64,000 bases of DNA from Acidimicrobiales bacterium (GCA_963664235.1 OY760933.1:3035419-3099418), one strand, 5' to 3'; counted from the first letter of the stretch, positions 41,687 to 51,138 are shown. The notes: a model not told the origin generated them from the letters alone. Program-made: numbers and translations.

Positions 41687-44196
41687 TCAGCAACCACCGT
41701 CCCTGAACGGGTTGGCGCTGCGGGCCGGGGCGATCCTCCAGTCCATCAGGAAGTCCGTGCGGCAGAGGCCACCGAACTCGTGCATCAGGTTGCTGAGAAG
41801 CGTGAGATCTCCCGAGGAGTCGAGGAATGCGCGCCACAGGTCCGCGCCGTCGCTTATGTACTCCGTGTACCAATCAGGGACCTCCCCGGCCAGTCCGCTG
41901 CGAAGCACCTCCAGATCCTCGTCGGTTGGCGTCGCGGGCGTCTCCGGACAGGCAGACAGCCGCCCGTAGTAGGTCAGGAATGCGTCCGAATCGACGAGGT
42001 GCAGCATGGCATCCGCGAGCGCTTCGGTTCCTCCGAACGTGCAGCGGGGGTAGGTCACGGCGAAATAGAGCTGGACAGCGCCCCATGCCCTGTTCGGCGT
42101 GAAAGTCGTCGTGTGGTCGTAGACGTGAGCCAACTCGTGGACGCCGATGTGGACGATCTCGCGAGTACTGAGGCGATTCAGTCTCGTGCCGATCGCGACC
42201 TGCGAGGTCCGGCATTCGAACGCTCCGGGCTCAACGAACCCGCAGCTCACCCTTGTGCTCCCCCCGGCTGCCCGGTCGAATATGCGGACGTCCTCACGTA
42301 CGTGATCCCAGGCGACTCGCAGCCAGGGGAATTCATCCTCTTCCTGACGGACCAACTCGTCCATCGCGGCTCGGAACGGTCGGGCATCGATCATGGAATC
42401 CGCGTCGCTCCAGACGGGCAAATTCAACTGTGCGACGGCCGTCCGCCCGGCGCCGCCCGGCGCCGCCACCCTCGAAGGTGTCAGCCGAGCATCGGTGTCA
42501 CCAACACCGAGTTGCCCGTAGTAGTTGTGACCCCAGCACAGAACGCCATCACCGGCGGTCACGGCGCACGCATGTGAGCCACTCCAAGTGTTGCCGCTGC
42601 TTACGGTGACCGCCAGTGCATCGCGGATGTCCAATCGCACGGGCGCCAGCTGACTCTCCGCCGTGCCGGTCCCCAATTGGCCCACGTGATTGGTGCCCCA
42701 ACACGACACGCCACCGTCCCGGTGCAGCACGCAGGAACTGAATTCGCCTATGTCCACTGCCAGTGCGTCAGCGATGCCGAGCACCGCCGCCGGTCGCGGC
42801 TCTTCGAGGAACGGCTCCCGGTACCGAGGAGGCCGACCTCCGTGACCGCCTCACCGGATGCGTTGTAGTACCAGAATTCGTTCTGTCCCCAGCAGGAGAC
42901 CTCGCCCGACCTCCGCACGGCACAGCTGGACCCTCCGCCCGCCGATACCGCAACGGCGTCATCGATGCCCTTCACCTTCGTCGGCGACGAGCTCGACGAG
43001 CGCGTGCCGTCGCCGAGTTGCCCGTAGTAGTTGCCGCCCCAACAGGACACCGAACCGTCGGCGTGGAGGGCGCAGGCGTGGCTCGCTCCGGCTGCAATCC
43101 CGACGAGATCGCTCAAGCCCGTGACCTTCTGAGGCCAGTCTCTGGATTGCCGGGGCCAGTCGCCCAATAATCCGGCGAAGTCCAACCCCCAACACGAGGC
43201 CGTCCCGTCCGCGTGCACCACGCACGTGAACCGCGCACCCGCCGCGACGTCCACGGCATCCCCGATACCCGGCACCTTCGTCGGCACAGCCAGACCACTC
43301 GCGTGCTCCACCACGGGAACCGTCGGATCACCACCGGTCGGACCTTCCTGCTGTGGCACTGGGCTACCGGGAGTTCCCTGCCCCAGTTCGCCCTCGGATT
43401 CGATCCCCCAGCAGGAGACCGTCTGATCCTCGTGGAGCACGCAGGTATGACCGTCGCCGGTTCCCGATGACGAATCCCCGATGCTGATAGCCACGGCGTC
43501 ACGAACGCCGAGAGCAGGGATCGGGGACATCGCCACATAGATCGAGGGATCGCCGAGCCGGAACCCGTGGCTGTTGTCCCCCCAGCAGTCGACACCGCCG
43601 CCTGCGTTGACGGCGCACGTGTGGTACCCGCTCGCCGCAATGAGTGCGGCGACTGCTCCCGGCCCGGAGTCCTGCGGCGCTTCGATCGAACCCGCCGCCG
43701 CGGCGGCGCTCAGACTCAAGGGCGAACTCGACAGCCAGCGCCGCACGTCGGCGTCCGGCGGGAACAAGCGCCGCGACGGCAACAGCCGCTCACCCCACGA
43801 ACCTTCAGCGCCTCGCTGCTGCAACCCGAACTCGACACGACCGCTCTCGAGTCGCCGCGCCACGATGCGCACCTCCACCTCCGCGCTGGGACCTTCGAAG
43901 GCAGTGGTGTCGGTGCTCAGCACCAGCCGCGAACTCGACAGCCAGCGCCGCACGTCGGCGTCCGGCGGGAACAAGCGCCGCGACGGCAACAGCCGCTCAC
44001 CCCACGAACCTTCAGCGCCTCGCTGCTGCAACCCGAACTCGACACGACCGCTCTCGAGTCGCCGCGCCACGATGCGCACCTCCACCTCCGACGTCTCGCC
44101 GCCGGCCTCCTGAGCCGCGGCGGTCGCGGGACTGGCGCCCCCGATCAGGACAACGAGCAGCAGCGCAGCCGCCGGTCGAACAAGTCGCGGGATCAC
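41687..44196 (-). pseudogene. secreted repeat-module + RCC1-propeller + HExxH/6-Cys C-terminal domain protein, paralogue A, split by a -1 frameshift in a C3/G3 run
   Basis: ORFs 42748..44196 and 41687..42784 are the two halves of one gene. Adding one G to the GGG run at 42817..42819 gives a continuous 836-aa ORF (..GLLGTGEPFLEEPRPAAVLGIADALAV..) collinear with the 45593..47938 paralogue. Confidence 0.7.
43724..44090 (-). repeat. two perfect 160-bp direct repeats (period 207 bp) inside paralogue A
   Basis: 43724..43883 is identical to 43931..44090. Each encodes the module VEVRIVARRLESGRVEFGLQQRGAEGSWGERLLPSRRLFPPDADVRRWLSSS. Confidence 0.9.
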
Positions 44197-44348
44197 GGTC
44201 CGCCCCAGGCGATTCGAGCCAGGTGTTCAGTCCTGCCAATCCGTCGGCGACAGCACTCGTCCCGGCAACGAACTCGACGGAGTGCGCGGCGTCACCGTCC
44301 TCAAGACCTTCATGGACGGCAACCTAGTGCAAGGCTCTCAGACGAGTT

Positions 44349-49196: not shown

Positions 49197-49200
49197 GCGC

Positions 49201-51138
49201 CTAGCAGCCGCCGTCGCGGAACGGATTCGTGCGCGGTGGCGGGATGAGTGCCGGTTCCAGCGGGTAGCGGATCCAGTCGGTGGTGCAGAATCCGCCGAAC
49301 TCGCCGCCGAGCTTGGCCAGAAGTTCCAGCGACAGGACCCGGCGCAGTACCCGCCACAACTCGGCGCCGTTGGTGACGTTCTCGGTGTACCAGCCGGGCA
49401 TCTCACCCGCCAGACCCGACCGCAGGGCCTGCTCCGCCTCGCTGTCCGGCTCGCCCCCCAGGCCGGCACAGCCGGCCCTGTAGTAGGCGAGCCAGGCCAC
49501 CGGCTCGACGAGATGCGCCATCGTGTCGGCGAGGATCTCCGCTCCCGGTCGCTGCCCGTAGTTCTGGAAGCAGTCCGGGTACCGCCAGGCGAAATAGAGC
49601 TGGACGGCCCCCCAGGCTCGCCCAGTCCCCAGGCCGGTCGTACCGTCGTAGACGTGCGCCAACTCGTGGACCGCGTCACCGAGGGTCATCTCGGCGAGCA
49701 CCATGCTGTCCGACCAGCAGGAGTACAACCCGTCGACGACGTTGCAGGACGATCGCACCGCCCCCCGGAGATCATCGATCCGACCCGCCGAGGCTCGTTC
49801 GCGGATCCGGTCCCAGGCCGGGCGCAGCCACGGGAACTCGGCCTCGCGCTCCCGGACGGCTTCGTCCAGCCAGTTCCGTAGCAGCGCAGTCTCATCGGCG
49901 GGGATCCGTGCGGCGGGAATCTCCGTGGGCGCCACGACCGGCTCGGGGGTCAACCCCCGGGGGAGGTTCCCGTCACCCAGTTGGCCGGCGTCGTTCCCGC
50001 CCCAGCAGGAGTACGAGCCGCTCTCGTGGGCAACACAGGTGTGCGGGGCGAGACGGGTTGAGCCGACGCTCATCGTCACCGCGACAGCGTCGGTGATGCC
50101 TGCGAGGCGCGCCGGCCGACGCTGCCCGGCGGTCGTGCCGTTGCCGAGTTGCCCCGATGCGTTCGCGTCGCCCCAGCACGCGACCCCACCGTCGGCGAGC
50201 ACCGCGCAAACCCCGCCGTCACCCACCGACACGGAGCTGGCCCCGGCGATTCCCTCGACCCGCTCGGGGTGGGCCTCGTCAGCCGCAGGCCAGCAGTAGA
50301 CCTCGCCGGCGACGGCCACCGCGCAGGTGCGATCCAAGCCGGTCGACACCGCGATGACCGCTGGCAGGCCCTCGACGGTCCCCGGACTGAAAGCGCTGAA
50401 ATTGCCGGCGCCGCCCCCGTAGCCCCAGCACGACAGTGCACCGCCGGCATGGATGACGCAGGTGGAGGACGGACCGGCGTCGATCCATTCGGCTGCCTCG
50501 ATGCCGGGAACCCGTTGGGGACTGCTGACAGTGGAGAACGTGATGTCGCCCAGCTGGCCCAGCGACCCGTCGCCCCAGCAGGAGACCTCCCCCCGGGCAT
50601 GCACGACACAGGTGTGATCGGATCCGGCGGCGAGCGCCACCGCGTCGGAGATGCCGGGCACCTTCTCGGGAAGGTATCCACTGAACGATTCGCCCCGGCC
50701 GAGTTGCCCGCTTCGCCCCGACCCCCAGCACGACACCGTCCCGTCGCCGTGCAGCGTGCAGACGTGCAACTCCTGATGGGGATGGTCACCGCTGGTGATG
50801 CCCACGACGTTCCGGAGGCCGGCGGCGCTGAGCCGTTCCCGGACGCCGTCCTGGCCCCAGCAGGTCACGCGGCCGTTGCGGCGCACCGCGCAGGTACGGC
50901 CGCGTGAGGCGGCGATGAGGCTGTCCCCGCTGCGGGTCGCACCCCGCACGAACTCGGGGCCCCTCACCACCGTCGCCTCATCCAGCGAGGAGCGCATCAC
51001 CTCCGGGCCGTCGGGGTCGAACTCCTCCGGCGGCAGCCGGACCCCCGCCGGCCCGGTTGCGGCCGCGGCGGCAACCGGACCCGCCAGCGCAACCGGGGCC
51101 ACAAGGCCCACGCAGCCGAACACCAGCATCGACACCAC
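49201..51138 (-). CDS. secreted RCC1-propeller + HExxH/6-Cys C-terminal domain protein, paralogue C (645 aa, lacks N-terminal modules)
   Basis: Signal peptide MVSMLVFGCVGLVAPVALAGPVAAAAA followed by RCC1 blades. The C-terminal domain carries EFPWLRPAWD, VHELAHVYD, WGAVQLYFA, EFGGFC and the terminal NPFRDGGC. Confidence 0.8.
   Translation of the reverse strand: MVSMLVFGCVGLVAPVALAGPVAAAAATGPAGVRLPPEEFDPDGPEVMRSSLDEATVVRGPEFVRGATRSGDSLIAASRGRTCAVRRNGRVTCWGQDGVRERLSAAGLRNVVGITSGDHPHQELHVCTLHGDGTVSCWGSGRSGQLGRGESFSGYLPEKVPGISDAVALAAGSDHTCVVHARGEVSCWGDGSLGQLGDITFSTVSSPQRVPGIEAAEWIDAGPSSTCVIHAGGALSCWGYGGGAGNFSAFSPGTVEGLPAVIAVSTGLDRTCAVAVAGEVYCWPAADEAHPERVEGIAGASSVSVGDGGVCAVLADGGVACWGDANASGQLGNGTTAGQRRPARLAGITDAVAVTMSVGSTRLAPHTCVAHESGSYSCWGGNDAGQLGDGNLPRGLTPEPVVAPTEIPAARIPADETALLRNWLDEAVREREAEFPWLRPAWDRIRERASAGRIDDLRGAVRSSCNVVDGLYSCWSDSMVLAEMTLGDAVHELAHVYDGTTGLGTGRAWGAVQLYFAWRYPDCFQNYGQRPGAEILADTMAHLVEPVAWLAYYRAGCAGLGGEPDSEAEQALRSGLAGEMPGWYTENVTNGAELWRVLRRVLSLELLAKLGGEFGGFCTTDWIRYPLEPALIPPPRTNPFRDGGC

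Follow-up and report, generated by a model that had tools for sequence, protein, structure and literature searches.

What kind of domain closes the three RCC1-repeat proteins encoded close together in the genome of an Acidimicrobiales bacterium, and what might it do for the cell? The genes, labeled A, B, and C after a listing of open reading frames (ORFs) over 38-55 kb, lie in a 64,000-nucleotide (nt) stretch of DNA (GCA_963664235.1, OY760933.1:3035419-3099418) that is referred to here as the window. An initial annotation had read their products as secreted RCC1 propellers that end in an unannotated, disulfide-stabilized metalloenzyme domain with a HExxH motif. We conclude that this C-terminal domain represents an undescribed, putative zincin family, which is in fixed fusion with an RCC1 propeller and specific to one symbiotic lineage. 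The pattern of motif conservation leads us to favor, with moderate confidence, the view that the A, B, and C proteins are cell-surface, propeller-guided zinc metallopeptidases of a new family.

An RCC1 propeller fused to an undescribed domain

Gene B (45593..47938, on the minus strand, as are all features of A, B, and C given below) is intact; its product of 781 amino acids (aa) comprises a putative signal peptide, two repeats of ~57 aa, a seven-bladed RCC1 propeller, and the six-Cys HExxH domain. The propeller is encoded at 46337..47353, and the C-terminal domain (247 aa), which served as the query in the sequence searches and as the input to the AlphaFold model, is encoded at 45596..46336. 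Gene C (49201..51138) is also intact and encodes 645 aa, with a short hydrophobic N terminus, no N-terminal repeat module, a seven-bladed propeller (about 49915..50937), and a C-terminal domain at 49204..49905. Three minus-strand genes had been claimed for this region. For B and C the claim stands, and RCC1 repeats are present in all three; however, 41687..44196, the span assigned to gene A, consists of two ORFs separated by a frameshift. The upstream ORF (42748..44196, 482 aa) encodes a putative signal peptide, two near-identical N-terminal repeats, and five blades and passes out of frame after ...GLLGTGSRSS, and the downstream ORF (41687..42784, 365 aa) encodes two blades and the C-terminal domain (41690..42376).

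The presence of multiple RCC1 blades in each gene, which the initial annotation had reported, was borne out both by Pfam matches and by blade motifs. RCC1 (PF00415), RCC1_2 (PF13540), and WD40_RLD (PF25390) matched all of the gene pieces, with E values of 1e-14 to 1e-49, and CW[GRP] motifs were found seven times in B, seven times in C, and five plus two times in the halves of A. Every blade carries a C-x9-C pair, the second Cys of which belongs to the CW[GRP] motif; this gives 14 Cys per propeller in B and C and suggests one disulfide per RCC1 blade. The RCC1 region itself is unremarkable and belongs to a very large family of repeats. Two complete propellers (14-15 blade motifs, 1056-1314 aa) stand before one C-terminal domain in two of the copies at L015 (2652 and 6425) and in P0027; these homologues have long acidic low-complexity N-terminal regions.

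The C-terminal domain, which measures roughly 235 aa across the three genes, aligns end to end among A, B, and C in a three-way alignment, as had been proposed. When the domains of the paralogues were compared by tblastn, E values of 1e-46 to 1e-77 were obtained at 43-51% identity (A versus B versus C); these values are far past chance, and the similarity among the three is therefore homology. All of the blocks previously listed were recovered in the alignment (EFPWLR, HELAH[VA]YD, WGAVQLYF, ExLAD, LAGxxPxWYTE, EFGGxC, and FRDGGC followed by the stop codon), and the six Cys residues are aligned across A, B, and C, where they correspond in B to C589, C598, C647, C693, C754, and C781.

The domain proved to be as unannotated as it had been said to be: nothing matched it in Pfam or NCBIfam at an E value of ≤1 outside the RCC1 region, among PDB sequences, or significantly by Foldseek. 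A PDB sequence search of the C-terminal domain, with either a single sequence or a clean 26-member profile, returned noise alone. When the 26 members were scanned singly at E ≤ 10, only motif-level matches at the HExxH stretch were obtained (DUF7844, Zincin_1, M76, and M50; best E, 0.034), and a PHROGs scan of members at E ≤ 10 gave motif-level noise and no family match. Among ~5.8 billion proteins, the single sequence detected 19 relatives and the clean profile (A3) detected 43 protein clusters, which makes this a small family; all 43 profile matches were in-family, with E values of ≤1.7e-29, none fell between that value and 0.01, and the sole source name for relatives of the domain was "hypothetical protein." An alternative profile (A2) that still included one RCC1 blade was swamped by 110,390 matches, yet it yielded full-length family members; against the PDB, this profile matched RCC1 proteins alone. 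In the protein database searches, the C-terminal HExxH domain was always located behind an RCC1 propeller and was not found on other RCC1 proteins. The family is previously undescribed and is not represented in the libraries of domains and families that were searched.

Putative active-site motifs and the predicted fold

Conservation within the family was assessed by scanning one genome per GTDB species, with WGAVQLYF among the scan patterns. The 46 loci obtained in this way and the three window genes together provide 71 domain copies, to which database proteins were added to give a set of 86 sequences. Both HExxH and ExxxD were present in 65 of the 71 domain copies, and the six Cys were present in all 71. 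In B, the HELAH motif (46082..46096; H615, E616, and H619, within domain residues 81-85) lies on a predicted helix spanning residues 76-88; the corresponding motifs of C and A are encoded at 49654..49668 and 42125..42139, respectively. The second motif, ExxAD (E124-x-x-A127-D128), which had not been singled out in the initial annotation, follows 39 residues past HExxH. It reads ELLAD in B (45953..45967; E658, A661, and D662, within domain residues 124-128), where it starts a predicted helix spanning residues 121-134, EILAD in C (49525..49539), and EALAD in A (42011..42025). E124 and D128 were each found in 81 of the 86 sequences and were lost chiefly together with HExxH.

The two motifs were both intact in 70 of the 86 copies and both degenerate in 9; HExxH was degenerate beside an intact ExxAD in 6 copies, and the converse was seen in a single copy. 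Fisher's test of this association gave p = 1e-7 (uncorrected for phylogeny), and most of the degenerate copies belong to one R-x-L-A-R clade, so that the number of independent losses is small. This coupling is the strongest evidence that the HExxH and ExxAD residues work together, and, at the motif level, E124 is a candidate third zinc ligand in a gluzincin arrangement. The proposal that the HExxH sequence is a conserved zincin signature needs to be qualified: the motif is intact in 71 of the 86 sequences and lies on a predicted helix, but it is degenerate in 15, mostly in the RxLAR clade. The zincin idea itself has gained support from the position of ExxAD on a predicted helix 39 residues past HExxH.

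The gluzincins (MEROPS clan MA, subclan E) carry HExxH...ExxxD, as in thermolysin (M4), neprilysin (M13), and ACE (M2), and the pattern HExxHxxD...ExxA[DE] is found in anthrax lethal factor (M34) and MtfA (M90). Like these enzymes, the domain described here has its HExxH motif on a predicted helix, and some 40 residues further on a second predicted helix carries the Glu of ExxAD. It also shares the Asp located three positions past the second His (HELAHVYD) and, in the model, a beta-sheet and helices ahead of the active-site helix. Unlike its resemblance at these positions, its sequence, profile, and fold show no detectable or significant similarity to the gluzincins, and it differs from them in its six conserved Cys, its unique C-terminal subdomain (VPDWYTEN, EFGGxC, and NPFRDGGC), and its fixed RCC1 fusion.

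AlphaFold2 models, built with the family alignment, were confident both for the whole domain (predicted local distance difference test [pLDDT], 88.6; predicted TM score [pTM], 0.89) and for a trimmed core of residues 1-140 (pLDDT, 90.5). The modeled elements are, in order, helices 6-21 and 27-38; strands 39-41, 49-58, and 61-71; helix 76-88, with HELAH at 81-85; helix 96-109, with WGAVQLYF; helix 121-134, which begins with E124-L-L-A-D128; and a helical C-terminal subdomain. Such an order of elements is compatible with a zincin N-terminal subdomain that precedes a glutamate helix. Strands 49-58 and 61-71 form a hairpin in the model, and a C55-C64 disulfide across it is plausible because the two residues are symmetric about the turn. 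When the core model was compared with BFVD, a collection of viral predicted structures, zincins predominated in the named top hits, which included Matrixin (E, 0.03), a pair of SprT-like proteins, an M34 endopeptidase (TMq, 0.42; root mean square deviation, 5.4 Å), and several IrrE proteins. The weak Foldseek matches in the PDB include an M3B peptidase (3ce2), ACE2, and DUF885, none of which was significant. The enrichment of zincins among these weak fold matches is a consistent, though non-significant, hint.

Several results weigh against the metallopeptidase reading. Neither sequence nor profile comparison linked the domain to a peptidase family, with nothing below an E value of 0.03 in Pfam, NCBIfam, or PHROGs and no match among PDB sequences. 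Foldseek comparison of the domain and core models with the PDB gave nothing significant (best E, 0.3 to 1.6; TM, ≤0.32), and the comparison of the core model with BFVD had a best E value of 0.03, which is not significant. Moreover, a clade of ~10 members in which both His residues are replaced by Arg (RxLAR) keeps the fold, all of the Cys residues, and the WGAVQLYF helix; this retention argues that the domain has a role independent of the metal site. Finally, the most invariant residues (W99, G100, Q103, Y105, F106, C64, and C113, each present in 86 of 86 sequences) are not the putative catalytic ones, the invariance of WGAVQLYF perhaps being due in part to ascertainment, since it served as a scan pattern. 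The pseudoenzyme-like clade and the invariant non-catalytic residues together indicate that, besides any catalysis, the domain also serves in structure or binding. Members of the RxLAR clade (R-x-L-A-R-V-Y-D) are L041, L043, L044, and L024 (14857), together with P0116, P0171, P0172, P0174, P0176, P0188, and P0189; in these sequences E124 or D128 is often changed too, and the N termini are mostly of the SLH type. The clade is likely to be a pseudoenzyme lineage.

These observations need to be set against the alternative that they favor, namely, that the C-terminal domain lacks catalytic activity and is a disulfide-rich module for binding or adhesion, through which, together with the propeller, the protein would work as a surface adhesin or receptor; HExxH and ExxAD would then form at most a structural metal site or a vestige. 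Such a module would explain why a clade without either His still has the overall domain, with its six Cys and its WGAVQLYF helix, why the most invariant positions differ from the putative catalytic ones, and why profile and fold searches detect no peptidase family. It would not explain, however, why H81, E82, H85, E124, and D128 are jointly kept in 70 of the 86 sequences, among paralogues that have diverged to 43-51% identity, and tend toward joint loss elsewhere. A general-base Glu would be superfluous in a purely structural metal site, and it is well established that pseudoenzyme clades are common in true peptidase families. We regard a solely binding or adhesive role as rather unlikely.

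Probable export and anchoring, and a proposed mechanism

From their sequences, the A, B, and C proteins look exported. Signal peptides were judged by a heuristic that combined n-region charge, a 12-residue Kyte-Doolittle (KD) window, and an AxA site. Of the three signal peptides previously claimed, those of A and B look convincing, with an Arg-containing n-region, a hydrophobic core (12-residue KD, 2.4 to 2.7), and an AAA/QE site; that of C is weaker, since its N terminus has a hydrophobic core but not a charged n-region. The signal-peptide-like N terminus of B, MSRAPGNASLACLAAVLFASSVAVVGLPSGAAA followed by QEP, is encoded at 47840..47938 (12-residue KD, 2.43; AAA/Q site). Mature B and C each contain exactly 20 Cys residues, made up of 7 C-x9-C blade pairs and the 6 C-terminal Cys, an even count consistent with extracellular oxidative folding. 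In other genera, Pfam identified SLH domains or a set of three CWB2 repeats at the N termini of homologues; both kinds of domain anchor surface proteins of Gram-positive bacteria to the cell wall. Taken together, the signal-like N termini, the 20 Cys residues, and the CWB2 or SLH domains of homologues support an extracellular location.

In A and B, the position of CWB2 or SLH is filled by the 57-aa tandem repeats, which lie behind the putative signal peptides at 43735-44121 in A and, by repeat alignment, at 47399..47776 in B. Their consensus is VRIxARRLxDGRxEFxLQ(Q)...WGERxLPxRRFFP...RWLxSSP, and no match to them was found in the Pfam scan; judged by their position, they are possibly another envelope-anchoring module, which may be new. 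The product of gene C, which lacks these repeats, may be released from the cell. A search with the repeat profile returned just 53 short database matches, mostly ENA records, the sole named one being from a Chloroflexi metagenome-assembled genome (MAG), and gave no hint of function. The repeat also occurs (62808-63236) in a third ORF, of 245 aa (62646..63383, minus strand), that is unrelated and that ends abruptly in ...TPLLFWLWSPY, an ending that we take to resemble the approach to a thioredoxin-like WCxxC motif. Beside this ORF (59927-62137) are an IS110-family transposase and a 5'-truncated IS256/Mutator-family transposase (61202..62137), and the ORF may have been truncated by the insertion of an insertion sequence. 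In the Candidatus Poriferisocius homologues (L014, L018, and L020-L023), the 57-aa repeats are replaced by a duplicated DQLIANQENLLNTYRCLFGVD...GGC N-terminal module that has no Pfam match.

The initial annotation had also drawn attention to a Cys as the very last residue of each protein and had considered a disulfide, lipidation, or processing as its purpose. This Cys is conserved in all copies, but it is the last residue only in the window genes and in about two thirds of the homologues. In 22 of the 71 genomic copies and in several database proteins, it is followed by 1 to 17 more residues (for example, F, S, P, PE, SG, RS, SPLG, QTGG, GTQTAE, or DEDDASDGA). Since the Cys is not invariably the last residue, lipidation or processing at this position was rejected as unlikely; the most likely role of the near-terminal Cys is to pair with another Cys in a disulfide.

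What the analysis shows is the architecture, the conservation and co-variation of the motifs, a confidently predicted fold, cell-wall anchors in homologues, and a narrow distribution; from here on we infer a mechanism, including zinc binding, proteolysis, the substrate, and disulfide pairing. After export by the Sec pathway and cleavage of the signal peptide, about ten disulfides would form in the exported protein. An optional N-terminal module, formed in A and B by the 57-aa repeats and in homologues by CWB2 or SLH, would hold the protein on the envelope. The propeller would then recognize or capture a substrate or ligand and deliver to the peptidase an extracellular protein, which probably comes from the host (sponge or coral) or from the environment. 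Within the C-terminal domain, one zinc ion would be bound by H81 and H85 of the HExxH helix and by E124 of the ExxAD helix; E82 would act as the general base, and D128 would orient a His ligand. Three disulfides would rigidify this domain, one of them probably being C55-C64, and the C-terminal Cys would probably pair with an internal Cys.

The nearest architectural analogy is with the matrix metalloproteinases (MMPs) that carry a hemopexin propeller. In both cases an extracellular zincin, putative in the present family, is joined to a beta-propeller, which in the MMPs is an exosite thought to select substrates, and the best BFVD match was Matrixin (E, 0.03). However, MMPs are metzincins (HExxHxxGxxH and a Met-turn) with a four-bladed C-terminal hemopexin propeller, whereas the proteins described here have no third His or Met-turn motif and carry an N-terminal propeller of seven RCC1 blades. 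Prolyl oligopeptidase (S9) also combines a seven-bladed propeller with a peptidase domain and offers a possible gating model, but members of that family, which are found in the cytosol or periplasm, are serine peptidases with the alpha/beta-hydrolase fold. Likewise, in the CWB2/SLH surface enzymes, such as the Clostridioides difficile Cwp family, the anchors are N-terminal to functional modules, as are the three CWB2 repeats or SLH domains of the homologues; in contrast, the window genes have the tandem 57-aa repeat (A and B) or nothing (C) at this position, and the enzymatic module is unrelated.

The anchors found in homologues are also compatible with a zinc hydrolase that acts on a non-protein substrate, such as an amide or ester in peptidoglycan, glycan, or lipid, with the propeller serving as a carbohydrate-binding module. 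CWB2 and SLH would tether such an enzyme to the cell wall, the lack of a match to any known peptidase family would be expected, and glycan binding is known to be frequent among beta-propellers. However, HExxH together with a downstream helix Glu is overwhelmingly a peptidase signature, the weak fold matches are peptidases, and the neighboring genes (OYE, MBL, nitroreductase, and acyl-CoA dehydrogenase [ACAD]) include no cell-wall or glycan genes. A non-peptide substrate therefore seems improbable to us.

Seven RCC1 blades, which have strong Pfam scores here, are a feature shared with bacterial RCC1 repeat proteins and with LegG1/PieG of Legionella. The Legionella RCC1 effectors LegG1/PieG are injected and act on Ran (PMC7542358). 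It can be envisioned that the A, B, and C proteins are eukaryote-like effectors of the same kind, which enter host cells and act on Ran or another small GTPase, with the C-terminal domain as an accessory. In favor of this view, RCC1 folds are typical of eukaryotes, host-associated Acidimicrobiia are the sole carriers of the family, and an enrichment of eukaryotic-like proteins has been reported for these symbiont clades (PMC11706023). Unlike LegG1/PieG, however, the window proteins are Cys-rich, are apparently Sec-exported, as judged by their signal-like N termini, belong to a wall-anchored family, and have an extra C-terminal HExxH domain; the Sec-type N termini, 20 likely disulfide Cys, and wall anchors indicate an extracellular, wall-bound location rather than the host cytosol. 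In addition, more than 110,000 representative proteins, recorded without their source organisms, match the one-RCC1-blade profile, which indicates that the repeat is not peculiar to bacteria that live with hosts, and no secretion-system genes were found nearby among the window ORFs and neighbors. Such an effector role is very improbable.

Genomic context, gene turnover, and host association

The window neighbors that are interleaved with A, B, and C encode an OYE flavin oxidoreductase, an MBL hydrolase, nitroreductases, and an acyl-CoA dehydrogenase. The order ACAD, two nitroreductases, C, MBL, B, OYE, and A is kept in L003-L006, and this conserved, interleaved order indicates that the paralogues are old and have no operon partner. 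Between these genomes, identity is 89-94% for the flanking genes, 73-87% for the B C-terminal domain, and about 60% for the A orthologue; the lower identities show that the family evolves faster than its neighbors. Across genera, there are 1 to 5 clustered copies per locus, and many loci have 2 to 5 that are tandem or nearby. The persistence of clustered copies across genera, together with the conserved synteny, argues for purifying selection, which we count in favor of the metallopeptidase reading.

One might also view the protein as a polymorphic toxin that carries the HExxH domain as its toxic tip and has an immunity gene downstream, a notion to which the C-terminal position of the domain, the variable N-terminal modules of homologues, and the clustering of the paralogues would lend some color. 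This notion is scarcely credible and was rejected: the C-terminal domain is conserved and the N termini are variable, opposite to the pattern in polymorphic toxins, no conserved small same-strand gene lies downstream (an opposite-strand ParE toxin, OYE, and a convergent MBL are found instead), and the Pfam scan gave no Rhs, LXG, or other toxin-delivery family.

Two further features of the surrounding DNA were observed. The tandem nitroreductase paralogues (51210-52723), which are ~65% identical as judged via orthologous loci, are located upstream of C in all close relatives. Directly downstream of A, two type II toxin-antitoxin pairs (40298-40824 and 40917-41539; Phd/YefM with ParE, and ParD with ParE) sit between gene A and an ABC transporter ATPase gene.

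The span of gene A is 2510 nt long, which is no multiple of 3. All-frame translation and protein alignment with intact orthologues revealed a one-base loss at ~42805, between ...GLLGTGSRSS and EEPRPAAVLGIADA..., in a sequence context that is not homopolymeric. The site, tcctc/gaaga (42801..42810), has one base fewer than the frame kept by the intact orthologues L003 and L006; it was located by protein alignment, the DNA alignment to the orthologues being too divergent (~70%) for the missing base to be pinpointed. The A orthologue is intact in L003, where one tblastn high-scoring segment pair spans 847 aa, the L006 orthologue reads through the stretch homologous to the frameshift site, and gene A is absent from L001, the closest relative. 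The frameshift may be an assembly error; however, the intact L003 copy, the L006 read-through, and the absence from L001 suggest real decay, and gene A is probably decaying in the present lineage. Near-identical 180-nt direct repeats in A (43704-43883 and 43911-44090; 96% identical), which are spaced 207 nt apart and encode both N-terminal repeat units, indicate a recent internal duplication or gene conversion.

Several orthologues of the family in related MAGs are likewise broken. Frame changes split or truncate many orthologues in related long-contig MAGs, including the B orthologues of L001 and L006 and the C orthologue of L004, as well as P0001, P0016, and other proteins; for many family members, the gene call in the databases starts within the propeller. 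These broken orthologues reflect either frequent pseudogenization or systematic indel errors in GC-rich repeats; gene decay or turnover within the RCC1-HExxH family is likely.

All 46 genome loci were derived from Acidimicrobiia MAGs (Candidatus Poriferisocius, Poriferisodalis, Aldehydirespirator, and other Acidimicrobiales), and the family is confined to sponge- and coral-associated Acidimicrobiia. Symbiotic lineages in the families Poriferisodalaceae (TK06) and Aldehydirespiratoraceae have been described (PMC11706023), and a Poriferisocius MAG is abundant in corals (PMC12625765). The former study analyzed nine eukaryotic-like domain classes, with RCC1 unmentioned, and reported that Actinobacteriota symbionts are comparatively low in classical eukaryotic-like proteins and that their strategies must be still undiscovered (PMC11706023). 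A literature search for RCC1 in sponge Acidimicrobiia found no report among the papers covered.

How the Acidimicrobiia of sponges (Poriferisodalaceae, Aldehydirespiratoraceae, and relatives), which are abundant symbionts, interact with the host is largely unknown. A family that is multicopy, surface located, fast evolving, and symbiont restricted, and that combines a eukaryote-type propeller with an undescribed domain, offers a concrete, testable candidate for such an interaction. We suggest, as a tentative proposal, that it constitutes a new metallopeptidase family, possibly a fold variant without PDB relatives, that occurs only in sponge and coral Acidimicrobiia and acts as a lineage-specific, wall-displayed host-interaction system. 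For protein science, this would be a peptidase family that has been overlooked by Pfam, NCBIfam, and PDB-based fold searches, and its active-looking and pseudoenzyme clades would form a natural pair for comparison. For the symbionts, if the proposal is correct, the C-terminal domain might cleave, for example, host matrix, lectins, or immune receptors and so allow persistence in the mesohyl, and it would be the kind of undiscovered symbiont strategy that has been postulated (PMC11706023).

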